Of a DNA stretch of 64,000 bases, positions 21,728-46,959 are shown one piece after another. The DNA is taken from the IMG/VR virus record IMGVR_UViG_3300049811_000692, positions 41,429 to 105,428 of that record; one strand, written 5' to 3'. The notes under the pieces are model-generated. The model ran no database searches. It was not told the origin of the DNA and saw only the letters and a list, made by a program, of their open reading frames with translations. Made by a program: the position numbers and the translations under genes. This stretch comes from a virus. Each line of letters starts with the position of its first letter. Position 1 is the first letter of the stretch.

Positions 21728-22336
21728 TCAGTCGGGGAGCTCGATGTCGCCCCACGCTTCGGGGCCTTCTTCGTGAACCTCGATGCTGTCGCGATCGATG
21801 TCGAAGGAGGCCTCGTCGATCTGGCGGCAGACGTTGTGGAGCATCATCTCGAGCAGCTGCTCGGTGAAGGCCGGATTTGTGCGGATGGCGTCAAGGACGC
21901 GACGCTCGGCCTCCTTCTCGGAGAAGGCGCGCACCAGCACGAAGGCTTCCGGCTGGAAGCCATCGTCGGCCATCACGCGCACCGTGTAGGGGATGCGAAG
22001 GTCGTCCTCGTCATCTTCAGCGCCGGCACCCTCGAACGGGTCCGTGCCGTCGCCCCCGATCCCGTCCTTGCGGGCGATCGCGGAGATGTCGTGCAGGTGG
22101 ACCGAGGGGCCGATGAAGCTCTGCATCGAATGCCCCTCGAGCCGAGGGTCGTGCGAGGCGACGTAGTGCAGGACCGCCTCGTCCGCGCGCTGGTAGCGCA
22201 CGACGAGCGGCTGCGGAGACAGCACGCACGCCAGGGCGGCGAGCGTGCCGGCCGGGCAGGCGTTACGGAGGTAGGACTGGTATGAGCAGCTTCTCCCCGT
22301 CGCCGTGACCCGGTCGTAGTAGGTGACCATCAGCAT
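21728..22336 (-). CDS. Cassette gene, hypothetical
   Basis: ATG follows the element; acidic 202 aa. Confidence 0.7.
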   Translation of the reverse strand: MLMVTYYDRVTATGRSCSYQSYLRNACPAGTLAALACVLSPQPLVVRYQRADEAVLHYVASHDPRLEGHSMQSFIGPSVHLHDISAIARKDGIGGDGTDPFEGAGAEDDEDDLRIPYTVRVMADDGFQPEAFVLVRAFSEKEAERRVLDAIRTNPAFTEQLLEMMLHNVCRQIDEASFDIDRDSIEVHEEGPEAWGDIELPD

Positions 22337-22409
22337 GGCGGATGGGTCTCTTCGGCCCCGGGCAGGGGGCCGCGACTGGCCGCCCCAGGGTGGGGCGGCG
22401 GAACCCGGC

Positions 22410-22748
22410 TCACGCCGGGCTGGAGGGCTTCTTCAGCGCCTCCCGCAGCTTCTCGCCGCGCAGGATGGTGGTGGAGCCCGGCAGGATCCCCTCGAAGGGC
22501 ACGGGATGGGGCGGGAACTCGCCCGGGCGGTCCTTGTAGGCCGACCGAATCAGGTCGCCGAGCTCGTTCATGGAGTAGAGCCCCATGGGCCCGTGCAGCT
22601 GGCTGAGCATCCAGTGCGGGGGGTTCTTGTTGCCGCGGCCGTAGGCCTTGCGGAGCCGCTTCATCGCCTGGGCGCGGGAGATGCCGCGCGCCCAGACATT
22701 CGGCCCGACGGCGAAGTAGCCGTACACCGTCTTCTTGGGTTCGGTCAT
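22410..22748 (-). CDS. Cassette gene, hypothetical (112 aa)
   Basis: AAGGA-N7-ATG from the element. Confidence 0.75.
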   Translation of the reverse strand: MTEPKKTVYGYFAVGPNVWARGISRAQAMKRLRKAYGRGNKNPPHWMLSQLHGPMGLYSMNELGDLIRSAYKDRPGEFPPHPVPFEGILPGSTTILRGEKLREALKKPSSPA

Positions 22749-22841
22749 GGTGGTGTCCTTCGTCCCGATCAGGGGACGCGACTGGCTGCCCCAGGACGGG
22801 GCGGCGGGGCCCGGGCGCTGAAGCGCCACGGGCAGGGAGGA

Positions 22842-23375
22842 TCACCGCAGGGGAGGCGTCAGATCGACGGCGGGCGGCTCGAGGCCGGGCGGCGCGAGGT
22901 GCGGCACGCAGGTCTGGTACCGGTAGTCCTGCACCGCGTTGTACTCGTCGGAGCCGACCTCGGGCATGCAGATGCCCTCGTCGAAGTCGGCCGCCAGCTC
23001 CAGCACCGCGCGTCCGTGTCGAAGGAGGCGGGGGTACTGGTTGTCGCTCAGGTAATCGTCGGGATCGACATAGACGCGCCCGCGCATGGTGTAGCGGCCG
23101 TCGTCCTCGAAGTGGGCTTCCTTCCCCCAGACGAGCGCCGAGGTCATGAACCCGGCGGCGTCGTTGTCGAGGATGTGGAAGCCGCCGTTGCTCTGGCTCT
23201 CGGCGCTGAGCTCGTCGATCGCGTCGTAAAGGGCGCGCTCCTGGCCGTGGCCGGGGTTGCGGGAAATGTACTCGTCCATCTGCTCCCGCAGCCAGCGCCG
23301 CCCCGCGTTGTTGGCCGTGATGATGAGCTGGTCGCCCTTCTCCTCGAAGAGGATCTGCGGGCAGTTCTTCGTCAT
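22842..23375 (-). CDS. Cassette gene, hypothetical
   Basis: Element SD then ATG. Confidence 0.8.
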   Translation of the reverse strand: MTKNCPQILFEEKGDQLIITANNAGRRWLREQMDEYISRNPGHGQERALYDAIDELSAESQSNGGFHILDNDAAGFMTSALVWGKEAHFEDDGRYTMRGRVYVDPDDYLSDNQYPRLLRHGRAVLELAADFDEGICMPEVGSDEYNAVQDYRYQTCVPHLAPPGLEPPAVDLTPPLR

Positions 23376-23465
23376 CGGGGTGGTCCTTCGTCCCGATCAG
23401 GGGACGCGACTGGCCGCCTCACGCTGAGGCGGCGGGGGCCAGGGCGCGCGGGGCGCCGCTGGCAA

Positions 23466-23885
23466 TCACACGCCGGGATCCTCGCGGCGTTGCCGCAAGT
23501 ACAGGCGGGCGTCCGGGCCCAACCTCCTCAGGATCTCTTCGCCAACCTCGGCGACTTCCTTGTGGACGTTGATGAGGCGCTCGAACTGAGCCCGCGCCGC
23601 GGCTTCGGACCGCTCAATCGTCTCGTTCAGCCAATCTAGTGCAGTGGGCGTGGGGGCGTCTTCGTCGGCAGCCGCGGCTCCTCGGGTGTTCACGAGCAGC
23701 ATGACCGCGCGGCAGGCAGCCAGCCACTCCAAGGTCACGCCAAGCAGCCGGCTGGCCACGTATTCGCGACCTTCCGCCTTGAGCGCGGCGATCGTGTAGA
23801 TCAGGCTTGATGACGCCATGGTAGGCGATATGTCGAGTAGAGCTTCGGCCCGAAGCGCCATGTCGTAATCAATCTCGGCAGGCAC
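23466..23885 (-). CDS. Cassette gene, hypothetical
   Basis: AAGGAG then GTG; visibly lower GC than neighbours. Confidence 0.7.
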   Translation of the reverse strand: MPAEIDYDMALRAEALLDISPTMASSSLIYTIAALKAEGREYVASRLLGVTLEWLAACRAVMLLVNTRGAAAADEDAPTPTALDWLNETIERSEAAARAQFERLINVHKEVAEVGEEILRRLGPDARLYLRQRREDPGV

Positions 23886-23976
23886 GGTGGTCTCCTTCGC
23901 CCCGATCAGGGGGCGCGACTGGCCGCCTCACGCTGAGGCGGCGGGGCCAGAGCGTAGCGGCGCTCTGGCGAGGTGA

Positions 23977-24234
23977 TTAGGCCGTGGCGGGCTCGATGAA
24001 GCCCTCGTCGTTCTCGGGGTCGGGCGGGAGGTAGGCGTCGTAGGGGTTCTGGTCGGAGACCAGGTGCCCGAACGGCACGAACTCGCACTCGTCGCCTGAG
24101 CGGTTGATCGCCACGATCACGTAGCGGGGATTGCGGGTCTTGGCGTCCAGGCACTCGAGCAGCGCCAGGTGGCCGGAGGCCGCCGCGCGCAACATCGTGT
24201 TGAAGTTGGCGCGGAGGGGCTCGGGGATGGCCAT
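23977..24234 (-). CDS. Cassette gene, DUF6117-like
   Basis: RANFNTMLRAAASGHLALLEC...PFGHL...NPYDAYLPP. Confidence 0.75.
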   Translation of the reverse strand: MAIPEPLRANFNTMLRAAASGHLALLECLDAKTRNPRYVIVAINRSGDECEFVPFGHLVSDQNPYDAYLPPDPENDEGFIEPATA

Positions 24235-24326
24235 AGGGCTTGGTCCTTCGCCCCGATCAGGGGGCGCGACTGGCCGCCTCACGCTGAGGCGGCGGGGAGC
24301 AGGGCGCAACGGCGCCCCGCTCGGTG

Positions 24327-24713
24327 TCAGGCGGGCGCAGCGGTCATCCAGGCGATCGGCGAGACTTCCTCCTCGGGGAGAGAGGCCTGCTCGTCGCGCG
24401 CGATGACGTGCTCGCGGATGTGGGCCGGGAGGTCGAGCCATCGGACGCGCTCGCGGGCGTAGCGCTGCCGATACTGGGAGAACTCCCAGAGCTGCATCTC
24501 GCCCATCAGGCTGACGCCCTGCGGGTGCTCGGGCCCATCCGACATGCCCAGGAAGGCCACCCAGCCTTCGCGGCCGGCGGCCCACTCCTTGCCGGTGAAG
24601 AACACCGTGTAGCGCTCACCCTCGTTGCGACTGTCGAAGCAGTCGCAGATGAAGGCGGGCGCGTTTTCGAGCCACCGCGCGCGGGCCCGCTTCGGGAGGC
24701 GGTGTTTTCTCAT
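24327..24713 (-). CDS. Cassette gene, hypothetical
   Basis: ERYTVFF...GMS..PEHPQGV...WLDLP pattern. Confidence 0.8.
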   Translation of the reverse strand: MRKHRLPKRARARWLENAPAFICDCFDSRNEGERYTVFFTGKEWAAGREGWVAFLGMSDGPEHPQGVSLMGEMQLWEFSQYRQRYARERVRWLDLPAHIREHVIARDEQASLPEEEVSPIAWMTAAPA

Positions 24714-24805
24714 CGGGGTAGTCCTTCGCCCCGATCAGGGGGCGCGACTGGCCGCCCCGGGACAGGGCGGCGGGGCCAGGGCGCACGGGGCGCCGCTGGC
24801 GGGCA

Positions 24806-25036
24806 CTACAGCCGCCGCCGCGAGAGCAGCGGCGGGTAGGTGGTGGGGAACCCGGGCGGGCGAGGCTCGCGCCAGGCGTCCGGGTCAGGCCAGGCGACGT
24901 AGATGTTCGTCGGCCAGGTGGCGCGCCAACCGGCGGCCTCGGCTTCCGCCGCCTCCTTCGTCGGAAGCGGCTCGGCCGACGCAAAGCGGTCGGTGGTCTG
25001 GTTCCAGACGCACCAGGCCTCTCGGATGTCCGTCAC
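24806..25036 (-). CDS. Second gene of a two-gene cassette
   Basis: GTGA overlap; AWCVWN module shared with 43273-43911. Confidence 0.7.
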   Translation of the reverse strand: MTDIREAWCVWNQTTDRFASAEPLPTKEAAEAEAAGWRATWPTNIYVAWPDPDAWREPRPPGFPTTYPPLLSRRRL

Positions 25037-25452
25037 TGCGGCTCGATCTTCGCCGCGACGTGGATGTGGAACATCCCGGGCGTGCTCATCTCGGTGATCG
25101 TCTCGCCCGTCCGCGCCATGCGGCCGAGGAAGATGACCAGCTTGCGGACGGTCTCGACGTCGATCTTCACGTCCACGATGTCCTCGCCGTACTCGCCGCC
25201 CTCCTCGGGGCCGGTGATGACGCCGATGCCGGAGAGCGGCTGCTGGTTGAGGGCCTGCAGCGAGAAGAAGTTGGCGGGGCCGTAAAGCAGCCCCTCGTCA
25301 TCCACCCACAGGTAGTCGCCGGTCGGGAAGCGCCCGGCGCAGGTCATGGGGCGGTTGTCCCAGAAGGCGCAGATCTCGCGGTGCGTGACCTGGCCGGGAA
25401 GTTCCACGACCTCCACCGTCTCGGTGTTGGGGTCGATCTTGATGATCTTCAT
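25033..25452 (-). CDS. Cassette gene, DUF3846-like
   Basis: IKIDP...LWVDDEGLL...PLSGIGVITG. Confidence 0.7.
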   Translation of the reverse strand: MKIIKIDPNTETVEVVELPGQVTHREICAFWDNRPMTCAGRFPTGDYLWVDDEGLLYGPANFFSLQALNQQPLSGIGVITGPEEGGEYGEDIVDVKIDVETVRKLVIFLGRMARTGETITEMSTPGMFHIHVAAKIEPQ

Positions 25453-25545
25453 GGTGGTGTCCTTCGTCCCGATCAGGGGACGCGACTGGCCGCCCCAAGA
25501 CGGGGCGGCGGGTGCCCGGGCGCCGAAGCGCCGCGGGCGGGAGGG

Positions 25546-26109
25546 TCAGGCGGCCTCCTCCTCGTCATCCGGCTCCGCGAGCTCCGCGGGGAGCTCGTTG
25601 AGCGGGTAGGTGCCGTGGAGGTGGAGCGGCTCGTTCATGTCCCGGTAGCGGTTGCCCTCGTCGGGCTTCGTCCGGGGCCAGCGGCTCACGTACACCTCGA
25701 GCACCTCGTCATCGAGGTTCACGAGGTAGCCGTACTCGGCGTCGTAGCCGGCCATGCCGGCGTCGAGATTGGAGGCTATCGCCCCGCGCACCAGGCGCTT
25801 GACGATGGTCCCCTGGTCGCGCCGGAAGAACGAGTAGGCGTCGCTGCCAGTGCTGACGCTGCGGTCGTGCGCGTCGGCGCCCCAGCGGCTCACCATCTCC
25901 GGGGTGATCGGGTCATTCCACGAGATCTGCTCGACCTTGGTCGCGAGCTCCCGGAGCCGGTCGATCCAGCCGTCGCCGTGCAGCTCGCGGAACTCGGTGA
26001 GCTCCTTGAGGATGGTGGCGCCGACGCCGGCGAAGTAGCCGTCGAACTGGTTGTAGGCGATCTTGTCCGTGCCGCCGATGCGGACGCCGGTGAGGGATCG
26101 GGTACCCAT
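25546..26109 (-). CDS. Cassette gene, hypothetical
   Basis: MGTRSL...YNQFDGY..GVG...EYGYLVNLD..VLEVY pattern. Confidence 0.8.
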   Translation of the reverse strand: MGTRSLTGVRIGGTDKIAYNQFDGYFAGVGATILKELTEFRELHGDGWIDRLRELATKVEQISWNDPITPEMVSRWGADAHDRSVSTGSDAYSFFRRDQGTIVKRLVRGAIASNLDAGMAGYDAEYGYLVNLDDEVLEVYVSRWPRTKPDEGNRYRDMNEPLHLHGTYPLNELPAELAEPDDEEEAA

Positions 26110-26208
26110 GGTAGGGGTGGTCCTTCGTCCCCAGGCAGGGGAACGCGACTGGCCGCCTCACGTTGAGGCGGCGGGTGCGGAGGGCGCCGAAGCGCCCCCC
26201 GCGGTGCG

Positions 26209-27405
26209 TCAGATCGTCACCTTGTTCATCAAGGCGCCGGCCTTCCGCTCGAGCGCGACGCGCTCGTCCTGGTGCGGGATGTCACGGGCCATGGCGGTGA
26301 TGCCCTGGACCATGTCCCAGATCGAACGGGCCGGGCGGCCCTCGGTCTGCATGACGCTCTCCAGGATCGCCTTGGCGCCCGACTTCGAGAAGTCGCGCTG
26401 CCCGAGCCACTCGAGCGCCTCGTCGTCGGTCTTGGCGACGGTGAGACGCTTCGCCTCGATGGCCTTGCGGGCCACCGCACTCGCGGAGATGTTGGAGAAG
26501 TCCTTGAGGGTCGGCATCACCTCCCCCCGGAAGCGATCCGGGAGGCCAGAGGTGTGACGGAGCGCGATCTCGTTGCGCCCTTCGACTCCCCACAAATTGC
26601 GATTCAGGCAAATCGCCCGAAGGTACATCGTCACCACCCTGAGGGAGGCAGCGCCGACCTCTGAGTTGGAGACCATGAAGCCCGGGAAGATCAGATCGGG
26701 GTCGCCGTTGTCGAGCTTGCCGATCTCGATCGGGTACTGGTCCCGACACAGGAAGAGGAACACGTCGCGATCGCTCGCGTAGAGCGTGGTGCTCTGCTTC
26801 GAGAGATAGTCGGGGTTCGGATCGTAGGTCCCCGTGGTCCAGTCGATGACACCCGGCACCTTCCAGGTGCCGTCCTCGGTGATGGCCTTGACCGCCTCGA
26901 CCACGTCCGCGTCCCACACCCGCCCGTAGGTGGGCGAGGTGATGGCGCGCAGCTCGGTGCGGCCCTCCGGCGTCGTGGTCTTCAGGAGCTTGATGCTCTC
27001 CTCGGATGAACGGCTGAGGAGATCCTGAACGACGGCGGGGGCGAGCCGGGTGCGTCGCAGATAGCGGGCCGGGAAGTCGATGTGCTGACACAGCTGGCTG
27101 AACGACCAGTGCGTCGGGTAGCCCTCGCCATCGGGGGCGAGGATCCGCATGGTGTCGGCCGAGAGGTTCTCGTCGGCCAGCACCCTCAGCGACCGCGTCC
27201 CGTAGGTGTTGACGATCGAGTTCTCCATGCGCGCCTTCACGGCGTCCAGGAGGTCGTCCAGCGACAGAAAGCGCTGGTCGTCAGGGCGGGTGTACCACTG
27301 GGAACTCAGGGACCCGTCGAGGGCCCCGCGCCGCACGTCCACGCGCCGCGCCCCCGAGGGGGCGGAGGGCAGGGTGGCCGCGGGCGGGATGATGGTATCC
27401 GGCAT
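26209..27405 (-). CDS. Cassette gene, DUF932-family protein
   Basis: SSQWYTRPDDQRFLSL, PTHWSFSQLC, TSPTYGRVWD, TTLYASDRDVFLFL, NSEVG, CLNRNLWG. Confidence 0.85.
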   Translation of the reverse strand: MPDTIIPPAATLPSAPSGARRVDVRRGALDGSLSSQWYTRPDDQRFLSLDDLLDAVKARMENSIVNTYGTRSLRVLADENLSADTMRILAPDGEGYPTHWSFSQLCQHIDFPARYLRRTRLAPAVVQDLLSRSSEESIKLLKTTTPEGRTELRAITSPTYGRVWDADVVEAVKAITEDGTWKVPGVIDWTTGTYDPNPDYLSKQSTTLYASDRDVFLFLCRDQYPIEIGKLDNGDPDLIFPGFMVSNSEVGAASLRVVTMYLRAICLNRNLWGVEGRNEIALRHTSGLPDRFRGEVMPTLKDFSNISASAVARKAIEAKRLTVAKTDDEALEWLGQRDFSKSGAKAILESVMQTEGRPARSIWDMVQGITAMARDIPHQDERVALERKAGALMNKVTI

Positions 27406-27508
27406 AGTGCCGTGGTCCTTCTTCGGCCCCAGGCAGGGGGCCGCGACTGGCCAGAGCAATACGCTCCGGCGGAAGTGCCCGCGGCACAGAGGCGCCGCGG
27501 GCGGGCGA

Positions 27509-28021
27509 TCAGCCGGGCGGCAGATCGATGGGGTGGCCAGCTCCCTTCAGCAGGTCGGCGATGCGCTGGGCGACCAGCGCCGGATTGTCCAAGTCGCCGA
27601 GGTAGGTGCCGGGGTTGAACAGTCGGGCCGTGTCGTAGCGGCCGAGCTCAAAAAACCGCCCGCACGCCTCGAAGTCCTGTTCCGGATCCACGCCGAACGG
27701 GCGTTCCGCGGAGCGTGTTTCCGGCTCGGCATACAGGACCGAGATGTCGGCGGCCCGGTTGAAGCCGAGCTTGACCAGCTCGCGCGCAGACCGGATCGGG
27801 GTCCAGTTGAAGTTCTCCCAGAGCGCCATGCAGAACCCCTGGCTCTGGAACCAGGGGTCGAGGGAGGCGTGTCCTGCCGCGCAGGCGGCGGTGCCGCATT
27901 CGTTGGCCTTGCCCCACGACCCCATGTTGAGGTCCAGGAAGAAGGGAGGGGCGGGAGCCTTCTCGGCCTCCGCGAGCGTCAGCATGATCGCCCGGAGGCG
28001 CTGGAGTGCTTCCACGTTCAT
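27509..28021 (-). CDS. Cassette gene, paralogue 1 (CGTxACAxG family)
   Basis: ECGTAACAAGHASLDPWF. Confidence 0.8.
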   Translation of the reverse strand: MNVEALQRLRAIMLTLAEAEKAPAPPFFLDLNMGSWGKANECGTAACAAGHASLDPWFQSQGFCMALWENFNWTPIRSARELVKLGFNRAADISVLYAEPETRSAERPFGVDPEQDFEACGRFFELGRYDTARLFNPGTYLGDLDNPALVAQRIADLLKGAGHPIDLPPG

Positions 28022-28114
28022 GGTGGGTGTCCTTCGTCCCCAGGCAGGGGGACGCGACTGGCCGCCTCGATGGGAGGCGACGGGGCCCGGGCGCCGAGGC
28101 GCCGCGGGCGAGGG

Positions 28115-28648
28115 TCAGGTGAGGCCCGCCTCCCGGCGAGCCTCGGCCTCCAGCTTGAGCCGGGCGAGCAGCTTCTCGACGCGGTTCAGGACGGCCTGCG
28201 GCGAGCCGAGTTCCGAGCGCTCGTATTCGTCGGGATCGAAGAGGTAGCGCGCGCGGGGCTCGGGGATACCGAAGAAGCTTGCCGCCGCGTGGTAGTTGAG
28301 GGGCCACTCGTAGGGATTGATCTCGGCGAGCTCCTCTTCGGGCGGGCCGCTCGGCGTTTTGTGGATCGGCATGACGGTGCGCCCCATGCAGGTGACTTTC
28401 GCGAGCTCTTCCACAGTGAAAGCCGCCGTGCCGCGCGCGGTGACCAGAAAGAGCCCGCGCTCCTGGAACCAGGGGTCCAGGCAGGCGAGGCCGACCGCGC
28501 AGGCGGTGGTACCGCATTCAGAGCGGCCATGAGCCCAGAGATCCATCCGGAGGTGGATGATGGGTGGCGAGAGCGCGTCCTGCGCCTCAATCTGCTGCGC
28601 AAGCAGGTCGCAGAGCCGTTCGAGCGCCTCGATGTTGGGTGTAGTCAT
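28115..28648 (-). CDS. Cassette gene, paralogue 2
   Basis: ECGTTACAVGLACLDPWF. Confidence 0.8.
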   Translation of the reverse strand: MTTPNIEALERLCDLLAQQIEAQDALSPPIIHLRMDLWAHGRSECGTTACAVGLACLDPWFQERGLFLVTARGTAAFTVEELAKVTCMGRTVMPIHKTPSGPPEEELAEINPYEWPLNYHAAASFFGIPEPRARYLFDPDEYERSELGSPQAVLNRVEKLLARLKLEAEARREAGLT

Positions 28649-28740
28649 CGTGGTGTCCTTCGTCCCCAGGCAGGGGGACGCGACTGGCCGCCTCGATGTG
28701 AGGCGGCGGGGCCCGGGCGCCGAGGCGCCGCGGGCGAGGG

Positions 28741-29277
28741 TCAGGTGAGGCCCGCCTCGCGGCGAGCCTCGGCCGTCAGCTTGAGCTGGGCGAGCAGCTC
28801 CTCGACGCGGTTCAGGACGGCCTGCGGCGAATTGCGCTCGCCGCGGCCGTACTCTTCCGGATCAAAGAGGCCGCGCGCCTGCCAGGGCTTGATCCCAAAG
28901 AACGACGCGCCCGCGTTGTACTCGTGGGGCCAGTCGAATGGGTCGCGGCCCGTATCCGGGTTGTTCGGGTCTCGATGGATCGGGAAGAGCCGCTTGCCAG
29001 GGTGGCGCTTGAGGTCGTCGAGCGTTCGGGCGATGTCGCCGTCGCTGCTCACCAGCACAAGCCCGCGCTCCTGGAACCAGGGGTCGAGGCAGGCGAGGCC
29101 CAAGGCGCAGGCCGTTGAGCCGCAATCGGCGCGGTAAGGTTCGGAGCGCCCCCAGTTGCACATGTCGAGGCGGATCTCAACAAAGCGCTGCAGCACAGGA
29201 GCGGCTTTCTCGACCGCGATTTGCTCCGCGAGCAGACGGCAGAGCCGCTCGAGCGCCTCGATGTTGGGTGTGGTCAT
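28741..29277 (-). CDS. Cassette gene, paralogue 3
   Basis: DCGSTACALGLACLDPWF. Confidence 0.8.
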   Translation of the reverse strand: MTTPNIEALERLCRLLAEQIAVEKAAPVLQRFVEIRLDMCNWGRSEPYRADCGSTACALGLACLDPWFQERGLVLVSSDGDIARTLDDLKRHPGKRLFPIHRDPNNPDTGRDPFDWPHEYNAGASFFGIKPWQARGLFDPEEYGRGERNSPQAVLNRVEELLAQLKLTAEARREAGLT

Positions 29278-29388
29278 CGTGGGTGGTCCTTCGTCTCCAG
29301 GCAGGGGGACGCGACTGGCCGCCTCGATTCGAGGCGGCGGGAACAACCGGCTGGGGTGGCACAAAGGGCTGCACACCAGATGTGGTGG

Positions 29389-29417
29389 ATCATATCATAA
29401 TGTGGCTCGCCGCACAA
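29389..29417 (-). promoter_or_regulatory. Sigma70 promoter for array A
   Basis: TTGTGC-17 nt-TATGAT; near-consensus operator CATA-N6-TGTG at 29391-29404. Confidence 0.65.
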
Positions 29418-33042: not shown

Positions 33043-33056
33043 GAAGAGGGAAGAGA

Positions 33057-39391: not shown

Positions 39392-39537
39392 CAGCGGTCG
39401 CCGGTGAAGAGCGATCGCCGCCGCTGGTGACGGCGCCGCTCGAGCTGCGCATGGACGGCGAGGATGGCGGCGACGGCCAGGAAGGCGAGGCCGCCGATGG
39501 TGCCGGCGACGTGAAGCACGGCCAGGAAGAAAGCCAT
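39391..39537 (-). CDS. Cassette gene, 48-aa membrane peptide
   Basis: MAFFLAVLHVAGTIGGLAFLAVAAILAV...; element SD; below ORF-track cutoff. Confidence 0.6.
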   Translation of the reverse strand: MAFFLAVLHVAGTIGGLAFLAVAAILAVHAQLERRRHQRRRSLFTGDR

Positions 39538-39633
39538 GGTGGGTGTCCTTCGTCCCCAGGCAGGGGGACGCGACTGGCCGCCCCAGGGCGGGGCGGCGGG
39601 GCCAGGGCGCGCGAGGCGCCGCTGGCGGGCGAG

Positions 39634-40284
39634 CTACAGGGGCTCGATGTTGTCGATGATGGTGGCGTCGCCAGCGTAGCCGCCGATCCACTCGCCGTCG
39701 GGATCGCCCTCTTCGAGCATCTCCTCGGCGAGCTGCCGGGCGTGCATGGCGCTGCGCGCCTCGATCTTCACCTTCAGGGTCTCCCAGCGCTTGCGCGAGA
39801 AGGTCACCGCGTAGGTGCCGACCTCCTCGGCCGCATCGGGCGGAAGCTCGATGGGCGGAAGGGGCGCCAGATCGACTTTGCTCTCGGCGAGGAGGAGTGC
39901 GATGGCGGCCGGCCCTCGCTCCAGGGTGGCCGCCATGGTGGCCAGACCGATGGTCGGGTTGCCGTCGTGGTCGGCCGTGTAGGCGACCGGATCAGCGCCG
40001 GGACGGTAGATCGTCACGGCCGGCCCGTACTCGTAGCCAGGGCCAGTGTGGACCCTTGCGTGCAGCTGAAACCGCACGAGCAGATCCGTCAGCGAGTTCC
40101 ATGTGCCGTAGTTCACCTCGTCCTGGTCAATCAGGATGTGCTCCTCGTCGGAGGAGCCATCGATGACCTCCTCGATGTTCGAGAAGGTGACGGGCTCCCT
40201 GTCGAGGAGGTCTCGCAGGCCGGTAAGGGCGTCCGCCGAAATGGGGCCGCCGATGGTGACGTTGACGGTGCAGCGATCACCCAT
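39634..40284 (-). CDS. Cassette gene, hypothetical
   Basis: MGDR...IGG; AAGGAG SD from the element. Confidence 0.75.
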   Translation of the reverse strand: MGDRCTVNVTIGGPISADALTGLRDLLDREPVTFSNIEEVIDGSSDEEHILIDQDEVNYGTWNSLTDLLVRFQLHARVHTGPGYEYGPAVTIYRPGADPVAYTADHDGNPTIGLATMAATLERGPAAIALLLAESKVDLAPLPPIELPPDAAEEVGTYAVTFSRKRWETLKVKIEARSAMHARQLAEEMLEEGDPDGEWIGGYAGDATIIDNIEPL

Positions 40285-40358
40285 GGGGGTGTCTCCTTCG
40301 TCCCCAGGCAGGGGGACGCGACTGGCCGCCCCAGGGCGGGGCGGCGGGAGGCGGATAT

Positions 40359-40396
40359 GCAAAAGCCCCCACCCGCGGGGGCGGATGGGGGCTTTC
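40359..40396 (-). terminator. Terminator-like hairpin inside array B
   Basis: AAAGCCCCCATCCGC-loop-GCGGGTGGGGGCTTTT on minus strand. Confidence 0.6.
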
Positions 40397-40399
40397 GGG

Positions 40400-40570
40400 T
40401 CAGGCGGCCGCGTCGAGCTCGTTCTGGAGCTTGGCGTTGCGCTCGCGCAGGCGGGCGACGGCGCGGGCCGGCTCACCCCGGGGGTGGACCATGTCGTACA
40501 CGATCACGCCGCCGATTGCGGTCATGGCGCCGTAGAAGCCGGCGACCAGGAAGTTGGTGGCGATGCCCAT
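40400..40570 (-). CDS. Cassette gene, 56-aa membrane peptide
   Basis: TM helix then basic coiled coil. Confidence 0.65.
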   Translation of the reverse strand: MGIATNFLVAGFYGAMTAIGGVIVYDMVHPRGEPARAVARLRERNAKLQNELDAAA

Positions 40571-40768
40571 GGTGGGGTTGTCCTTCGGCCCAGTCAGGGG
40601 CCTCGACTGACCACCCCACAGCGGGGCGGCTGGTCGGCCCCCCGCTCGACCGCCGCCCGAGGGAGCGGCAGGAGCAGGGGGCCCTTTCGCGCCTCGACCG
40701 GAGGCGCACGACGGGCCGCCTCGGTGGGGCGGCAAGGTGCCCAGCTGCCGGCTGGGCTCGGGGTCGGT

Positions 40769-40966
40769 TCAGCCGACCAACTTCGGGGCCTGCCCGCGCG
40801 GGGGCTGGCGGGCCGCGATCTCGTTCTGGAGCCGCTGGGCGCGGCGCTCGAGGGCGAGCTGCTGGCCGACACGGAAGGCGGCGGCGCCGATGCCGACGCC
40901 CGCGACGACCGTGAAGCCGATCACGGCCGCCTGAGCGGCCTTTTCCGAGACGAACGCGAGGTTCAT
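40769..40966 (-). CDS. Cassette gene, 65-aa membrane peptide
   Basis: TM helix then basic coiled coil. Confidence 0.65.
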   Translation of the reverse strand: MNLAFVSEKAAQAAVIGFTVVAGVGIGAAAFRVGQQLALERRAQRLQNEIAARQPPRGQAPKLVG

Positions 40967-41172
40967 GGGGAATGTCCTTCGGCCCAGACAGGGGCCTCAG
41001 CTGGCCGCCCCAGGGTGGGGTGGCTGGGCCCTCGCCGTCGGAGGGGTCCGGCGGCGAGGGGGAGGGTAGTAGGGGTAGTGGTTCGATCCCCGGCCGGGGG
41101 ATCTCGACGGGCCACCCCAGCATGGGGTGGCGCCAGACCGCCCGGGCACGAGGCCCAGGCGATTGGAAAGGG

Positions 41173-41343
41173 TCAGGCGGCCTTCTTGGTCTCCTCGACC
41201 GCCTTCGCGGCGCGGCGCTTGGCGAGCGCCTGGCGGGCGGCCGGGATGCCGTGCGTGACGGTGAGGGTCACGCCGACGCCGGCGGCGACGCCGATGGCGT
41301 ACGGGAGGGCGGGGCGAACGAAGGCGAGGGCGTTCTGGAACAT
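41173..41343 (-). CDS. 56-aa membrane peptide, first gene of unit B
   Basis: SD GGAG; MFQNALAFVRPALPYAIGVAAGVGVTLTV...KKAA. Confidence 0.65.
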   Translation of the reverse strand: MFQNALAFVRPALPYAIGVAAGVGVTLTVTHGIPAARQALAKRRAAKAVEETKKAA

Positions 41344-41393
41344 GATGTTCTCCAGTCCAATCAGAGAGGGGTAATTCCCTGCTCTGTAGGTGT

Positions 41394-41423
41394 ATTATTA
41401 CGCCTAAATACGTGTCATGGCAA
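41394..41423 (-). promoter_or_regulatory. Sigma70 promoter for array B
   Basis: TTGCCA-17 nt-TAATAA(T) with AT-rich upstream DNA. Confidence 0.7.
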
Positions 41424-42036: not shown

Positions 42037-42070
42037 AGAAAACCCGCCGCAACCGAAGTCGCGGCGGGGT
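42037..42070 (-). terminator. Terminator ending array C
   Basis: CCCGCCGCGAC-TTCG-GTTGCGGCGGG-TTTTCTT. Confidence 0.85.
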
Positions 42071-42075
42071 CTTGG

Positions 42076-42612
42076 TCACAGCTCGCGCAGGAGCGCGACG
42101 AGCCGGTGAAGGGCGTCGATCGCGTGGTTGTGCTCGGCCCAATCCTCGCTGCGGCTCTCGCTCGCGGCCTGCTCCACCAAGGCGCGCTGCTGTTGGGCGA
42201 CCATCTCCAAGATCAGGGTGACGCCTGCGCGGTGGATGGAGTGGGATCCCATGATGAGCAGGAGCTGGATGGCGATGTCCTGGTTGCGCTCGCCGAGGGC
42301 GCCAGTGTCGGCGTCCTGGTCCACCAGGCGAGGGACGAGATCGCGCAAGGCCTGCAGCACGGAGGCGGGATAGGTGGACCGGAGCAGCTGCTCCAGTGCA
42401 AGCGTGCAGAAGAGCGTGTCGCCGGCGGCGAACAGGCGGTGGTGGCGACCGTCCCAGGCCCAGCGAACCGGGATCTGCCGGTTGTCCTGCAGGGTGAGGG
42501 TGGCAGGAAACGGATCGTTGCCGGCGCGGATGTGCTGGTCGGCGTCCACCTTGTCGGCGGGGATGCGGCACGGAATGTGCCCGTACAGCCATCCGTTGAT
42601 CGTCGAGGTCAT
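42076..42612 (-). CDS. Cassette gene, hypothetical
   Basis: AAGGAG then ATG. Confidence 0.75.
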   Translation of the reverse strand: MTSTINGWLYGHIPCRIPADKVDADQHIRAGNDPFPATLTLQDNRQIPVRWAWDGRHHRLFAAGDTLFCTLALEQLLRSTYPASVLQALRDLVPRLVDQDADTGALGERNQDIAIQLLLIMGSHSIHRAGVTLILEMVAQQQRALVEQAASESRSEDWAEHNHAIDALHRLVALLREL

Positions 42613-42703
42613 GGCGGTGATCTCCTTCGTCCCCAAGCAGGGGGACGCGACTGGCCGCCCCAGGGCGGGGCGGCGGGTCCCTGGCCTTGCGGCCAGGGGG
42701 TGC

Positions 42704-42874
42704 TCAGCGCCGTCGCCGGCGCGGGCGCTTGTACCAGGAGCGATCCCGGACGACCCGCACGAGCGGCGGGGCGGCCAGGTTCTCCCAGCGCAGCATCCGC
42801 GCCGCCGCGGCGGCGTCGCGCCTCGTGCGGTAGCAGGTCGGCGCCAGAAGGCCATCGACGCGCAGGGTGTACAT
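42704..42874 (-). CDS. Small basic protein, second gene of cassette
   Basis: TGATG coupling. Confidence 0.5.
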   Translation of the reverse strand: MYTLRVDGLLAPTCYRTRRDAAAAARMLRWENLAAPPLVRVVRDRSWYKRPRRRRR

Positions 42875-43179
42875 CACGCACCCCCCTGGTGGCGCGCCTT
42901 GAGGAGCTCGTAGCTCCAAGACGTGATGCCGATGGGGGTGAGGCCGATGTCGAGCAAGGTCTCGTTCATCGCGAGAACCTCGCCCTCAATCTCGGCCGTG
43001 CGGATGATGTGCCCGCCCGTGATGCAGGGCGTCGCGCAGGTGCGGATGCGCTCGAAGAGCTCCTGGGCCTGGTGGCCGAGGACCATCGCGGGGTCGCACA
43101 GCACGAGGCTGCCCCAGGGGGTGCGGCGCCCCAGCATGGGCGTGCGGGTGGGCTCTGAGAAGTCGAGGTGCAGGGCCAT
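42874..43179 (-). CDS. Cassette gene, hypothetical
   Basis: Element SD then ATG. Confidence 0.7.
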   Translation of the reverse strand: MALHLDFSEPTRTPMLGRRTPWGSLVLCDPAMVLGHQAQELFERIRTCATPCITGGHIIRTAEIEGEVLAMNETLLDIGLTPIGITSWSYELLKARHQGGA

Positions 43180-43272
43180 AGTGGTGTCCTTCGTCCCCGA
43201 GCAGGGGGACGCGACTGGCCGCCCCAGGACGGGGCGGCGGGTGCCCGGGCGCCAAAGCGCCGCGGGCGGGGG

Positions 43273-43911
43273 TCAGGAGGCGGGGGCCGCCAGTTGGGCG
43301 ACCGGCAGCTCTGCCGGCTCCTGGTAGAGCTTCCCGTCGTCGGGGTTCACGTACCAGTTGGCCGGCCCGAAGAGCCGGGCGCCCTTGGCGAGCATGTCCC
43401 CGATCTCCTGGGGCCAGTCCCCGTCCCAGAAGCCGCAGCCGTGGCCTTCGCGGGTGTACCAGAAGTCACGGCCGGCGTGCTCCCAGACCGTGTCGGTGGG
43501 GGACCCGGGCTTGTGGGTGTGCTCGGCGCTGGCGATGCGCGCGGCGTAGTGGGTCAGGAAAACCTCGCAGTCGGCCGTGATGGCCTTGTGCAAGGTCGAG
43601 CTGATCATCTCCCAGGTCCAAGTCTCGTCTTCGGGGCAGGCCGAGAAGAGCGCCGCGGCCACGTAGTCGCCTCGGAACTCCTGAAGCTTCGGGTGCGGGT
43701 TGAGCGTGGACGGCGCGCCGTGCGGCTTGAGGTCGCCCATGCGGAAGTCGGGGTCGCGGCGGACCTCGTACTGGCCGGCGGTCCACAGGCGGCGCCACTT
43801 GTCGGCCCAGGCCATGGCTTCCTCCTTCGTCAGGTAGGGGCCGCTGGCCAGCATGCCGGCGGTGTTGTTCCAGACGCACCAGGCCGGCTCGAGGTCGGGG
43901 GTGTTGGTCAT
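43273..43911 (-). CDS. Cassette gene, two-domain hypothetical
   Basis: AWCVWN N-terminal module; AGRDFWYTREGHGCGFWDGDW C-terminal domain. Confidence 0.8.
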   Translation of the reverse strand: MTNTPDLEPAWCVWNNTAGMLASGPYLTKEEAMAWADKWRRLWTAGQYEVRRDPDFRMGDLKPHGAPSTLNPHPKLQEFRGDYVAAALFSACPEDETWTWEMISSTLHKAITADCEVFLTHYAARIASAEHTHKPGSPTDTVWEHAGRDFWYTREGHGCGFWDGDWPQEIGDMLAKGARLFGPANWYVNPDDGKLYQEPAELPVAQLAAPAS

Positions 43912-44002
43912 GGTGGTGTCCTTCGCTCCGATCAGGGAGCGCGACTGGCCGCCTCACGTCGAGGCGGCGGGGCCCGGGCGCCAAAGCGCCGCGGGCGGGC
44001 CT

Positions 44003-44662
44003 TCACCCGCGGATGGCGGGCTCGGGGTAGTGGAGGGGGCGCGCGCCGGTGATGCGGACCAGGAGGCGGCTTTCGCCGCTCTCTGAGCCGGAAAACGAAA
44101 GGGCGTTGGCGACGGCCGCTTCGCGCGAGAAGTACGGGCCGCGGGGGCTCACGCGGTCGAAGCCGCCGCTGTCCTCCGTGGCGTCCCAGTACCAGCCCGT
44201 CGGCGTGGCATCGGCATCCCACCAGACGGTGACGTCCAGGGTGGGGCGCTCGACGCGCACCTCCTCGGGATTGAGGAGGCCGAGGCGGTTGGCCACGAAC
44301 TCGGGAGGCGCGCCGAGCGCCTGGGCGCAGATCATGAGCCGCGCCGTCTGGGCGATCTCCTCGTGGTAGTCGCTGTAGAAGACGACCACGGGGTCGTTCG
44401 GGGCGTAGTTTCCGCCCAGCAGGCGGTGCGCCACGTAGCGCGCCCCGTCATCGGTCAGGCGGTTCTGCAGGAAGACCTGGCAGCCTTCGCAGTGCGAGGG
44501 GTAATCGCACTCGTCGTCCGTCGTCGGGCCCTTCGGCCAGTCGTCGGAGTCGTAGCTGCTCTCGTCGCCTTCATCGACGTGCTTGGGCATGGGCAGGTGG
44601 CGCTTGATGTGGTCGGTGCAGTCCTCGCACCAGAGCGTGGCGCGGTAGGTGTACACGTCCAT
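44003..44662 (-). CDS. Cassette gene, hypothetical
   Basis: WCEDC...PSHCEGC..FL.N.LT; GWYW...GPYFS.EAA. Confidence 0.8.
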   Translation of the reverse strand: MDVYTYRATLWCEDCTDHIKRHLPMPKHVDEGDESSYDSDDWPKGPTTDDECDYPSHCEGCQVFLQNRLTDDGARYVAHRLLGGNYAPNDPVVVFYSDYHEEIAQTARLMICAQALGAPPEFVANRLGLLNPEEVRVERPTLDVTVWWDADATPTGWYWDATEDSGGFDRVSPRGPYFSREAAVANALSFSGSESGESRLLVRITGARPLHYPEPAIRG

Positions 44663-44756
44663 CGTGGATGTCCTTCGTCCCCGAGCAGGGGGACGCGACT
44701 GGCCGCCTCACGTCGAGGCGGCGGGTGCCCGGGCGCCGAAGCGCCGCGGGCGGGGG

Positions 44757-45701
44757 TTACTCCTCGCGGACGGAGGTGATCTCGGGCTCGCTCTCGGTGC
44801 CGGAAATCAGATCCCAGTCGAGATCGCCGAGCTCGTCGTTGTCGTCCATCTCGCAGACGATGTTCTCGGCCTCCTCGCGGGAGGAGGCCGTGACCATCAT
44901 GGTGGTCTCCTCGGCGACGGTGCGCCGCAGGCGAACGCGGTACTCGCGCTGCACGCGGTCGGTTTCGTCGCGGTAGGCGATGGTCATATCGCACCATTTG
45001 ATCGCGCCGGCATCGCCGGCGACGGGCGGGATCTCGTAGATCTTGAGCGGCCAGTTGCGCGGGCCGACGCTCCAGTACTTGCGCCAGGCGCGGATCACGC
45101 CCGGCATGTCGCCCTTCTCCGCCCGGACGAGCAGATCGTATTCAGAGCCGTCGTCGATTTCGGAGCCGGCGTAGATCGCGGAGTCGTCCGACACGCCGCG
45201 GACCAGGTAGAGGGTCGTGAGCGGCTCGGGCGTCTCCGCAGGCGGCGCCACGGCGGGCGCAGCCTCCGCGGGAGGCGGGTTGGCAGGGAAGCGCCGCACC
45301 GCCTCCTCCACGAAGCCGAGGGCCTGGGAATGGCCGGTGCGGCCCCAGTGGGCCCGCGCCTGCTCCACGGTGAAGTTCCGGCAGCCGGCGCAGATATGCA
45401 GGCCGTCCCGCATGGGGATGGCCCAGAAGACGTAGCCGCGATCGTCCATGCCGAGCCGGTGATGCTGGAGGTGCGGCTGGTGCGTGTTGATGCAGACGCG
45501 CTCCGTCACCATCAGGCCCGGCGGGATCTCGCGGATCGTCGTGGCGACATAGAGGGCGCCCTGGACCGTGAGGTCGGCGGGCAAGATCTCGATGCCGGTG
45601 TCGAGCGTATCGAGGGTGGTTGTGATCAAGGCGCCGACCGGCAGACCCGAGGTCCGCAGAAGTTCTCGCGCGGTAGATCCGGCGTAGCAGTTCTTGGTCA
45701 T
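44757..45701 (-). CDS. Cassette gene, multidomain hypothetical
   Basis: AGCRNFTVEQARAHW module; C-terminal V.ASSREEA module. Confidence 0.75.
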   Translation of the reverse strand: MTKNCYAGSTARELLRTSGLPVGALITTTLDTLDTGIEILPADLTVQGALYVATTIREIPPGLMVTERVCINTHQPHLQHHRLGMDDRGYVFWAIPMRDGLHICAGCRNFTVEQARAHWGRTGHSQALGFVEEAVRRFPANPPPAEAAPAVAPPAETPEPLTTLYLVRGVSDDSAIYAGSEIDDGSEYDLLVRAEKGDMPGVIRAWRKYWSVGPRNWPLKIYEIPPVAGDAGAIKWCDMTIAYRDETDRVQREYRVRLRRTVAEETTMMVTASSREEAENIVCEMDDNDELGDLDWDLISGTESEPEITSVREE

Positions 45702-45793
45702 GGTGGTGTCCTTCGTCCCCGAGCAGGGGGACGCGACTGGCCGCCCCAAGACGGAGCGGCGGGGCCAGGGCGCCGGGGCGCCGCTGGCGGGGG

Positions 45794-46048
45794 TCACGCG
45801 GGCTCAATAGCTTCGATGTGGTGTGCCCCCAACACGATCCCGTAGTAGCGGGCGTCGTGCAGAAGGAGGCCCTGTGCCTTTGGGTCGATCCAACCAAGCT
45901 CGACCACATGGAAGCATCCGGCTGTTGATCCGGTCCTGATGGGCCGGCAGCGCGTGTGGCGGGGGATCACAACGTCGTATTGTAGATCGGAGCTGGATCG
46001 CCCCCATGTGAAGCGAAGCTCCTCGCGGGTCCGATAGGTGGTCATCAC
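45794..46048 (-). CDS. Second gene of cassette
   Basis: Overlap coupling; LLHDARYYGI motif. Confidence 0.65.
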   Translation of the reverse strand: MMTTYRTREELRFTWGRSSSDLQYDVVIPRHTRCRPIRTGSTAGCFHVVELGWIDPKAQGLLLHDARYYGIVLGAHHIEAIEPA

Positions 46049-46371
46049 CGAAACCCGTGCGCGGAGCCGAGCTGGCCGTCGAGCATTCGGACGGCGCCGA
46101 GGTCGGCCATGCGCCAGTTAGCGTCGGGCACCTCGTGATGGAGGCGGCGCGTCGCGTCTGCGGCTCGCCGGTTGTAGGCCTGGTAGGCGCGGTCGGCGAC
46201 AGGGCCAAACCTCATCGGGTCGTAGCGCACGGCGTTTGGGCCGATGTGGCGCACCGACTCCAGGGCGGCCGCGAGGAGGCGCAGGTTGATGGTGCAAGAG
46301 TACGACCAGCGCTTGTACGCGGCGTCGATCTCCAGGTCGGTCTCCATCGGCTGGAGGCCTTCGATGGCCAT
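46045..46371 (-). CDS. Cassette gene, hypothetical
   Basis: Element SD then ATG. Confidence 0.7.
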   Translation of the reverse strand: MAIEGLQPMETDLEIDAAYKRWSYSCTINLRLLAAALESVRHIGPNAVRYDPMRFGPVADRAYQAYNRRAADATRRLHHEVPDANWRMADLGAVRMLDGQLGSAHGFR

Positions 46372-46465
46372 GGTGGGTGTCCTTCGTCCCCAGGCAGGGG
46401 GACGCGACTGGCCGCCTCGAGGTGAGGCGGCGGGTGCCCGGGCGCCAAAGCGCCGCGGGCGGGGG

Positions 46466-46882
46466 TCACGCGGCGGCGGGCCGCGGGTAGAGCAGCTCGA
46501 GCGGGTACTCGCGCAGCAGCACCTCATGGAACGTCTCGCCGATGTAGTCGGCGTTCTCGCTCTCCTCGCTCGTGTCCGGGCGCATCAGCTCGAGCGTCAG
46601 CGTGCGGACGAAGCACGGTCGGGCGATCACGTAGAAGCGCTCGGTCGGTTCGTAGAGGCCGCTTTCGCCCATGCGTCGGTACGAGGTGCTGAACGTCAGT
46701 TTCGTCGCGCTTGAGCTGTCGAGGTCGAACTCGGTGCCGGCGTCGAAGCCGCTGCCTGAGGGCAGGTACTCCCGCGCTATGTAGGCGGCGCGCTCCGCGT
46801 GCATGGAGGCCATGACGTTGAGGGAGCGGTGGTAGGCGTCGGCTGTGCCGGCGAGCGCGCGGTAAAGCGGCGTGGTTCGCAT
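46466..46882 (-). CDS. Cassette gene, hypothetical (first of array C)
   Basis: LPSGSGFDAGT..D...KLTF..SY..M.E.G.Y pattern. Confidence 0.8.
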   Translation of the reverse strand: MRTTPLYRALAGTADAYHRSLNVMASMHAERAAYIAREYLPSGSGFDAGTEFDLDSSSATKLTFSTSYRRMGESGLYEPTERFYVIARPCFVRTLTLELMRPDTSEESENADYIGETFHEVLLREYPLELLYPRPAAA

Positions 46883-46959
46883 GGTGTTGTCCTTCGTCCC
46901 CGAGCAGGGGGACGCGACTGGCCGCCCCACGACGGGGCGGCGGGACGCTCGCAGAGACG

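Follow-up and report, generated by a model that had tools for sequence, protein, structure and literature searches.

The final 64 kb (positions 41,429-105,428; hereafter the window) of IMGVR_UViG_3300049811_000692, an IMG/VR virus record of 105,428 bp from the phage designated G000, contain three arrays of small genes in which the same multi-hairpin element stands again and again between one stop codon and the next start codon. This raises the question of what an element of about 95 nucleotides (nt), here called the leader, does for the genes between its copies, and what holds it constant. The leader forms an RNA structure on the sense strand that is strongly selected in a sequence-specific way and tied to stops and starts, and its copies are recombination substrates. 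Our overall reading, for which belief and doubt are evenly balanced, is that of a cis-acting bipartite mRNA module, in which a standardised 5' untranslated region (UTR) with its Shine-Dalgarno (SD) sequence is joined to a 3' hairpin for the upstream gene, and which also serves as recombination homology. Coordinates are window positions unless marked otherwise.

The leader comprises three hairpins, P1, P2 and P3, and occupies the whole stop-to-start gap. From 5' to 3', the stop codon is followed by 3-10 C-rich nt, P1, CCC, P2, the linker CAGUCG, P3, AAGGA, 7-9 nt and AUG or GUG. P1 is a GC hairpin of 9-11 bp and variable sequence, present in about 28 of the 32 strong copies; it does not have the form of an intrinsic terminator, since CCC follows it and a U-tract is absent. 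P2 has the consensus GCCGCCCC-N5-GGGGCGGC and P3 the consensus CGNCCC(C)-CUGNNY-(G)GGGNCG, and the conserved CGAAGGAC is located 7-9 nt before the start codon. In the representative copy c43217, on the minus strand, P1 (43243-43267; GCCCG-C-GGCGC UUUG GCGCC-CGGGC) lies 5 nt after the stop codon at 43275-43273, followed by P2 (43218-43238; GCCGCCCC-GUCCU-GGGGCGGC), the linker CAGUCG, which is predicted to be single-stranded (43212-43217), P3 (43192-43211; CGUCCCC-CUGCUC-GGGGACG) and, at 43177-43191, the SD sequence AAGGA, a 7-nt spacer and the AUG of the gene 43179-42874.

The core motif CAGT[CT]G[CA]GNNCCC was identified 31 times between 22378 and 46920, in all cases on the minus strand, and the plus strand and the remainder of the 105,428-bp record gave no occurrence. 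It is placed 36-44 nt before the start codon and, in most copies, 53-59 nt after the stop codon. A 32nd copy, with the core at 41003, is a genuine CAGCUG variant. A covariance model (CM; R1, on alignment A2) built from the P2-linker-P3-SD core scored the 32 copies at 60-86 bits and added three diverged copies at 32.1-41.5 bits, with the plus strand at noise level. A gapped pattern matched 21 times exactly, compared to 0.00 matches expected in shuffled sequences. A first-pass annotation of this DNA had described 32 copies, distributed as 12+13+7 over the arrays, all on the minus strand and none outside the arrays. Strand and confinement were borne out across the 105-kb record, and the count of 32 stands for the strong copies, but the total is 35 with the three diverged ones.

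That the leader acts as RNA was indicated by its pattern of substitutions. The alignment cells of P2 and P3 are paired in 98.7% of cases, compared to 39-53% with the partners slid, and double, compensatory changes were found at five pairs (33 cells), a covariation that was reached in 0 of 500 shuffles. Pair 77-94 of P3, for example, is U-A in 15 copies, G-C in nine and C-G in eight. Among the one-sided stem changes, eight are G.U wobbles in the mRNA sense versus three on the opposite strand. Together, the compensatory changes and the sense-strand wobbles point to RNA pairing, and folding of the mRNA-sense strand is favoured. The linker CAG is invariant (32/32), and CUG begins the P3 loop in 31 of the 32 copies, the exception being c34887 with CAG. 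In this respect, the first-pass annotation was right on the compensatory stem changes and on the almost invariant linker and loop, and the covariation for which it had proposed a covariance model as a check proved to be significant.

The three arrays have the layout of operons, all on the minus strand. Array 3 (42043-46988) consists of a promoter, seven leader-gene units with one additional overlap-coupled gene, and a terminator. Its promoter-like sequence TTGAAT-17-TACAGT (46960-46988), identified by eye, contains CACA-N6-TGTG in the spacer, and transcription is predicted to start about 10-15 nt before P2 of the first leader. The leader cores follow at 46883-46944 (c46920, promoter-proximal and without P1; CM score 85.7 bits), 46373-46434 (c46410; 82.9 bits), 45702-45763 (c45739; 83.1 bits), 44664-44725 (c44701; 83.1 bits), 43912-43971 (c43947; 75.6 bits), 43180-43241 (c43217; 83.9 bits) and 42616-42677 (c42653; 85.1 bits), and the array ends with a U-tract terminator at 42043-42068.

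Array 2 (34218-41423) has a promoter-like TTGCCA-18-AATAAT at 41394-41423, which was called by a promoter scan, a leaderless first gene (41343-41173), 13 leader-gene units, one coupled gene, two leader fossils, and an internal and an end terminator. The fossils, diverged leaders without a gene at 41072-41134 (41.5 bits) and 40676-40736 (32.1 bits), are probably scars of cassette loss. The CAGCUG variant is found at 40968-41027 (c41003; 60.4 bits) and precedes the gene 40966-40769. The other cores were located at 40574-40633 (c40609; 65.1 bits), 40287-40348 (c40324; 80.8 bits, with a U-tract terminator, 40382-40365, in the position of P1), 39539-39600 (c39576; 83.2 bits), 39045-39104 (c39080; 72.4 bits), 38677-38736 (c38712; 73.8 bits), 38365-38425 (c38402; 71.7 bits), 37568-37629 (c37605; 81.4 bits), 36976-37039 (c37015; 71.9 bits), 36488-36548 (c36524; 63.7 bits), 36117-36176 (c36152; 76.8 bits), 35380-35439 (c35415; 72.9 bits) and 34850-34911 (c34887, the only copy with CAG for CUG in the P3 loop; 77.7 bits), upstream of the U-tract terminator at 34218-34245.

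Array 1 (21441-29417) comprises a promoter, 12 leader-gene units and one diverged unit, one coupled gene and a terminator. The putative promoter, TTGTGC-17-TATGAT at 29389-29417, was read by eye. Here, the cores are at 29280-29341 (c29317, promoter-proximal and without P1; 74.3 bits), 28649-28710 (c28686; 80.4 bits), 28023-28084 (c28060; 76.5 bits), 27412-27473 (c27449; 66.9 bits), 26114-26175 (c26151; 80.6 bits), 25453-25512 (c25488; 80.0 bits), 24715-24774 (c24750; 71.0 bits), 24237-24296 (c24272; 72.1 bits), 23886-23945 (c23921; 74.9 bits), 23377-23436 (c23412; 75.6 bits), 22749-22808 (c22784; 73.8 bits) and 22341-22402 (c22378; 71.5 bits), and a diverged leader (21653-21710; 33.5 bits) heads a gene for 57 amino acids (aa) at 21642-21469, before the U-tract terminator at 21441-21462.

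The promoter and intrinsic terminator that had been claimed for each array are thus found as terminators for all three and as promoter-like sites for all three, each in an AT-rich sigma70-like context at the array start. U-tract terminators were identified only at the array ends and once at 40382-40365. The CACA-N6-TGTG palindrome at 46967-46980 lies in the 17-nt spacer of the array-3 promoter, and a similar CACA-N5-TGTG is present near the start of array 1. These palindromes are likely operators, so that the arrays are probably repressor-controlled.

Within the arrays, the two parts of the leader belong to different genes. P1 is absent from the promoter-proximal copies c46920 and c29317, and also from the copy 47192 of a related phage, G001, introduced below. 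Since P1 is missing from these copies and is replaced by a terminator at c40324, it goes with the 3' end of the upstream gene, and the conserved core belongs to the 5' end of the downstream gene. All four leaderless genes that occur after the leaders begin (45794-46048, 42704-42877, 39134-39391 and 24806-25036, all minus strand) overlap the preceding stop codon, by GTGA in three cases and by TGATG in the gene at 39134-39391. As a rule, then, a gene within an array has either a leader or translational coupling, and the leader is in this way linked to translation that is initiated de novo.

This arrangement, highly conserved and oriented before every gene, would also be expected for an element acting on transcription, either a phage-specific promoter for each gene or an antiterminator RNA of the put or nut type. 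The two stem-loops resemble those of HK022 put, and hairpins of the P1 type might act as weak terminators requiring read-through. However, the minimal -10 sequence TANNNT was found in none of the 32 cores, promoter scans gave no sites in the leaders, and no RNA polymerase or sigma gene was identified among the proteins scanned. In addition, compensatory changes and sense-strand wobbles speak for RNA pairing and not for protein-DNA contacts, and an operon needs an antiterminator only once, not before each of its genes. A role at the level of transcription is considered highly improbable.

In kind, the element is not confined to this phage, because related phages bear a second leader type. Three such phages were identified in IMG/VR: G001 (82.9 kb) via its DUF932 homolog, and G002 (92 kb) and G003 (100.7 kb, with terminal repeats) via a profile of the large terminase, TerL. 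Their TerL proteins are 59-61% identical to that of G000, and the backbones of G000 and G001 are syntenic with 40-63% protein identity. The leader lineage is one of temperate phages of about 80-105 kb, with Acetobacteraceae as their probable hosts. In all three relatives, same-strand arrays flank DnaB, with 16 copies in G001, about 13 in G002 and at least 21 in G003. The leader in these phages, type B, is distinct from type A of G000 and is ordered as stop codon, variable P1, spacer, GCCCCC[GGGY-N3-GCCC]GUCGA-N3-5-GGGGGC, (A/C)(A/C)GGA, 7-9 nt and start codon; in G001 and G003, AGCC directly follows the stop codon. Its predicted fold is nested, in that an outer stem encloses an inner hairpin and a 3' internal loop exposes UCG, and represents the minimum free energy (MFE) structure in 34 of 50 copies. 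The inner stem shows a sense-strand U.G in 12 of the 50 copies, and compensated variants of both stems are present in G002. The consensus of the type-B core is the same in G001, G002 and G003 despite identities of only 46% for DnaB and 64-70% for TerL.

Types A and B share a post-stop hairpin, an exposed (G)UCG beside a helix, and a G-rich helix strand that abuts a GGA-type SD sequence. The type-A CM gave nothing significant on 80 DnaB-linked loci and on G001, so that homology of the two types cannot be shown. Exact type-B matches occur in multiple copies only in the records of G001-G003, and relaxed type-A patterns gave singletons only. By k-mer screens of about 220 DnaB- and TerL-linked loci, leader arrays were found only in G001 and G003; L374 and L354 were rejected as array candidates, since their repeated words lay in coding regions. 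The distant DnaB-linked viral contigs L080 and L044 contain dispersed motifs of their own, 13 copies of TGGTGGCATTTGC and eight copies of CCTGATCCCTGA, respectively. At about 47150-47290 of G001 (L098), a promoter-like TTGCGA-N17-TGTGCT lies between an orphan type-B core and a second, P1-less leader that heads the DUF932 gene. From the position of this internal promoter, transcription would start immediately upstream of the core of the second leader, an arrangement also seen at c46920.

The genes carried by the arrays are mostly orphans without a Pfam or PHROG match, the exceptions being a few PHROGs of unknown function, one DUF1281_C protein and one DUF932-like protein. Among 34 cassette proteins, just one paralog family, with three members, was identified, and tandem gene duplication was for this reason rejected as the source of the repeats. 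In this trio, the leaders are 91-96% identical, compared to 63-75% for the DNA of the open reading frames (ORFs). The proposal that the element heads unrelated accessory genes is supported.

Between phages, the cassettes are replaced and the leaders are kept. In the arrays of G001 and G003, similarity is confined to the leaders (60-100 bp at 75-88% identity, many-to-many), and the flanking backbone is syntenic. For G000 and G001, only the DUF932 gene is clearly common to the arrays, with 55% aa identity. It stands under a type-A leader in one phage and under a type-B leader in the other, which shows that the leader type follows the genome and not the gene. Inside G000, a four-gamete test on the helix states (C-G or A-U in P1, C-G or U-A in P2, pair type and length in P3) revealed all four combinations for each pair of states. 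As these are combinations of compensated double changes, they point to exchange between leaders with breakpoints between the helices. Adjacent leaders are also more alike than random pairs (0.85 versus 0.79 identical; p about 2e-4, even with shuffling within arrays). The first-pass annotation had suggested a portable module that provides homology for cassette gain, loss and shuffling; conserved leaders, replaced cassettes, mosaic leaders and local homogenisation fit this, whereas the test for insulation of the ribosome-binding site (RBS), given below, was negative. In the leader of the DUF932 gene in G000 (27412-27473), P2 is rewritten at three pairs (GCCGGAGC/GCUCUGGC), with stem and loop size kept. 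This cassette may be a more recent acquisition that was homogenised only in part.

Homogenised neighbours and mosaic leaders would also be produced by a selfish or neutral intergenic repeat which is kept alike by gene conversion and has no role in expression. Such a repeat would not explain the compensatory stem changes, the strict placement between stop and start with a fixed distance to the start codon, or a core identical across phages with 46% DnaB identity, and no copies exist outside the arrays or in the other genomes searched. We regard this explanation as having next to no chance of being correct.

Integrons come closer in their organisation. Vibrio VCRs, the attC repeats, are homogeneous within a genome and lineage-specific. 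Likewise, the leaders are homogeneous per genome with lineage-specific types, and in each array one promoter is followed by small ORFan cassettes, mostly unknown and without promoters of their own, which all face the same way and turn over completely; a tyrosine integrase is encoded at 14962-16047. If the leaders were integron-like sites, they would be used as folded single-stranded DNA by a site-specific recombinase. However, the attC core sites GTTRRRY and RYYYAAC are present in none of the 32 leaders (R'/R'' sites), and neither IntI nor attI was found. The integrase matches the generic Phage_integrase Pfam family only and none of the NCBIfam models, including that for the integron integrase, and lies 5 kb from array 1, the nearest array. 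The leader forms three short perfect hairpins instead of one long imperfect hairpin with extrahelical bases, it includes the ribosome-binding site with SD/start spacing as part of the conserved unit, and its mosaic structure fits homologous exchange. Site-specific recombination of this kind is thus most improbable.

Searches for known families gave no counterpart. With Rfam, whose ribozymes, ROSE thermometers and cis elements of phages were covered, no match was obtained over the window at gathering thresholds; for array 3, relaxing the limit to E <= 1 yielded a single, unrelated plus-strand match. In 185,579 species genomes of prokaryotes, three single chance matches to the exact gapped pattern were seen, all without P2, and exact type-A patterns in IMG/VR and in genome and metagenome collections likewise gave only single chance matches. 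A repetitive extragenic palindrome (REP/BIME) or miniature inverted-repeat (MITE) family of the host was rejected, since all copies sit between stop and start and no scattered copies were seen in the genomes searched, in agreement with the earlier expectation that the element would match neither an Rfam family nor a scattered host repeat. No antisense RNA complementary to the core was found elsewhere in the genome.

The leaders are classed as conserved regulatory linkers flanking phage ORFan cassettes, and they form a new family of RNA motifs, of which two types are present in four or more phages. We infer a role in processing or transcript stability, a trans-acting factor and a recombination enzyme, in the following way. 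Each array would be transcribed as one operon from its sigma70-like promoter through a string of cassettes to the U-tract terminator. P1 would serve as the 3' hairpin of the upstream cistron, acting as an exonuclease barrier or a weak attenuator. The core, CCC-P2-CAGUCG-P3-AAGGA-N7-9-start, would provide the standard 5' UTR of the downstream cistron, in which a single-stranded UCG would be exposed at the helix junction with the SD sequence directly 3' of a G-rich helix strand. By this fixed initiation region, each foreign ORF would be turned into an autonomous unit with uniform expression. The long transcript would be divided into segments that are each stable on their own, with an endonuclease probably cutting in the spacer or linker that is exposed, although we hold actual cleavage at the leaders to be less likely than not. 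A sequence-specific trans-acting factor is likely because the core is nearly invariant. At the level of DNA, the repeats of 60-95 bp would offer homology for gain, loss and exchange of cassettes, plausibly via the YqaJ-type exonuclease and Erf annealase of the phage, which are encoded at 19103-21349 on the minus strand, adjoin array 1 and are candidates for a short-homology recombination machinery. Cassette shuffling would then be a second consequence of the leader or a selected role.

The near-invariance of the unpaired positions is equally the basis of the main rival explanation, in which the P3 hairpin and the UCG junction beside the SD sequence form a common operator for a trans-acting translational regulator. 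All cassettes would be switched together without processing, by a regulator acting like T4 RegA or like an RNA-phage coat protein on its operator hairpin. CAG in 32/32 copies, CUG in 31/32 and UCG in all type-B copies are as expected for such a binding site, and a leader type that tracks the genome over the gene is as expected for co-evolution with one factor. Moreover, the 3' strand of P3 abuts the SD sequence, and in many MFE folds a predicted GUC/GAC extension covers it in part. However, no candidate binding protein was found among the backbone genes scanned, an identical type-B core in phages with 46-70% identical proteins would need an unusually conserved factor or one of the host, and P1 is left unexplained. 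Translational control by a common operator is therefore rather unlikely, and less so than the other rivals.

In favour of a small self-cleaving ribozyme of a new class, cutting the transcript at cassette boundaries, stands the compact form of the element, in which about 12 unpaired nucleotides are invariant and the helices number two or three. CAG in the linker and CUG in the loop are complementary and, by reasoning on the structure, sterically compatible with an H-type pseudoknot. Several known ribozyme classes occur as many copies in phage intergenic regions, as the leader does. Against a ribozyme, no similarity to Rfam ribozymes was detected even at E <= 1, the putative pseudoknot shows no covariation and is uncompensated in its single variant, c34887, and type B has a different topology with a variable inner loop, so that no common catalytic core is visible. 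The chance of a ribozyme appears slight. A combined form is judged unlikely. In it, a dedicated system of RNA punctuation would recognise and cleave accessory operons at the leader, either as a new ribozyme or as the substrate of a sequence-specific endoribonuclease comparable to Cas6/Csy4 hairpins, to give capped monocistronic mRNAs, and the leader would at the same time act in the DNA as a recombinase-independent, integron-like docking site for cassettes.

Several results weigh against the bipartite mRNA module preferred here. In silico, the accessibility of the SD sequence was not increased compared to 40 dinucleotide shuffles per leader (17/32 leaders, p = 0.32), and therefore simple unmasking of the RBS is not supported. 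Classical RNase III sites would need longer stems; a site of the T7 type, a roughly 20-bp irregular duplex, was rejected for helices of 7-11 bp. No RNase, RNA-binding protein or other trans-acting factor was assignable among the backbone genes. Since the stems of type B are almost invariant, its structure rests mostly on conservation. The comparison of cassette turnover was made on the diverged phages G000-G003. Finally, promoters and transcription starts were read by eye, with the exception of the array-2 promoter.

The closest kinds of known elements are the promoter early stem-loops (PeSLs) of T4-type phages and the start-associated sequences (SAS) and extended SAS (ESAS) of actinobacteriophages. 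A PeSL consists of a sigma70 early promoter and a terminator stem-loop, which makes each cassette its own transcription unit, and modular shuffling through homologous recombination from one copy to another has been proposed for PeSLs and in part shown (PMC2839356, PMC4122927). Like PeSLs, the leaders are conserved composite intergenic motifs with a stem-loop containing G/C runs, located beside ORFans in hypervariable regions, with recombination between copies. The flanking by ORFans and the recombination-driven replacement that characterise PeSLs are seen here as orphan cassettes, complete turnover and mosaic leaders. However, the leader is devoid of a promoter, transcription starts from one promoter per array, and the conserved part is a multi-hairpin 5' UTR including the SD sequence.

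The SAS is a conserved, asymmetric 13-bp motif that covers the SD sequence a few bp before the start codon, GGGATAGGAGCCC (PMC3203893), and the ESAS adds directly upstream one imperfect inverted repeat of 17 bp, whose spacer measures 4-13 bp (PMC3203893, PMC7302621). Both are scattered in 10-19 copies in actinobacteriophage genomes, namely of Cluster K mycobacteriophages and Cluster EF Microbacterium phages (PMC3203893, PMC7302621). As in the leaders, a motif overlapping the SD sequence stands before the starts of some genes, after an inverted repeat with a variable spacer; the copies have one orientation and precede unrelated gene families, and the consensus differs between subclusters. In contrast, the leader has CGAAGGAC in the same position, a sequence unrelated to GGGATAGGAGCCC, and with about 95 nt it comprises three helices of 7-11 bp with covariation. 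It is present in 16-35 copies packed in dedicated arrays, it carries a post-stop hairpin, and it occurs in another host clade.

A further likeness is to intercistronic elements, where hairpins between cistrons set the stability or processing of segments and make monocistronic units translatable. The REP hairpins of malEFG, the hairpins of the Rhodobacter puf operon and the RNase III sites of T7 are stabiliser or processing elements of this type. The plastid intercistronic expression element (IEE) is an intercistronic processing element as well (PMC2230500). These are single elements, host-wide repeats or long RNase III substrates, whereas the leader is a phage-specific multi-hairpin element found before every gene and fused to the SD sequence.

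Accessory regions of phages gather genes for anti-defence and host takeover, and the capture and expression of such ORFs are poorly understood. With leaders in related phages too and the genes between them swapped, the leader has the look of a standard socket into which accessory genes are plugged. A non-coding module that is kept far better than essential proteins, while all genes between its copies are replaced, offers a clean and testable model. It bears on how the expression of arbitrary foreign ORFs is standardised, with 85 natural variants of a new RNA motif, and on whether repeated regulatory linkers drive modular exchange outside the T4-like phages. Should processing or a dedicated binding factor be found, the leader would also make a small insulator part, of natural origin, for hosts with high GC content. 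If the combined form with recognition, cleavage and docking holds true, about 95 nt would unite the capture of genes with the insulation of their expression, as a natural plug-and-play socket of phages.

The record of G000 has an estimated completeness of 91%, and the window has a GC content of about 70%. By gene content the phage is temperate, with the tyrosine integrase and a CI-like helix-turn-helix (HTH) gene (33018-33818). DnaB and a replication initiator are located between arrays 1 and 2, and the backbone also includes a VRR-NUC nuclease, SSB, a Ro60/TROVE gene and the large terminase. No close relatives among isolated phages were identified by megablast or word-11 blastn, and the best TerL identity to these is about 37%; the sole nucleotide match to an isolated phage is a short coding match to Caulobacter and Brevundimonas phages. 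The cassette gene 43273-43911 (minus strand), assigned to phrog_1915, resembles hypothetical genes of these phages at the DNA level, with 75-85% similarity in stretches of 54-102 bp, which fits a gene pool of alphaproteobacteria. In a large protein database, TerL relatives are named Rhodovarius crocodyli (61% identity) and Falsiroseomonas (48% identity). From the names of these relatives and the Caulobacter/Brevundimonas-like cassette gene, the host is probably an alphaproteobacterium of the Acetobacteraceae, an assignment read from names, and not an actinobacterium.

Some observations concern the backbone. The Ro60 homolog at 52320-53807 (minus strand) contains TROVE and Ro60 von Willebrand factor A domains, and no counterpart was found in G001 by tblastx. 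The TerL of G001 (L103:274-2802) has 842 aa, compared to 519 aa in G000, with an intein-like insertion of about 1.2 kb between conserved blocks, and several TerL homologs in the database bear Hint/intein Pfam domains. A minus-strand ORF of 472 aa (32733-34151) overlaps the CI-like HTH gene on the plus strand, has no family match and shows a weak signal of GC content at third codon positions (GC3); it is probably a shadow frame, with the plus-strand CI-like HTH protein being the conserved gene. Two operator-like palindromes CACCGA-N4-TCGGTG, at about 21323-21364, lie just past the terminator of array 1 and ahead of the YqaJ/Erf operon.

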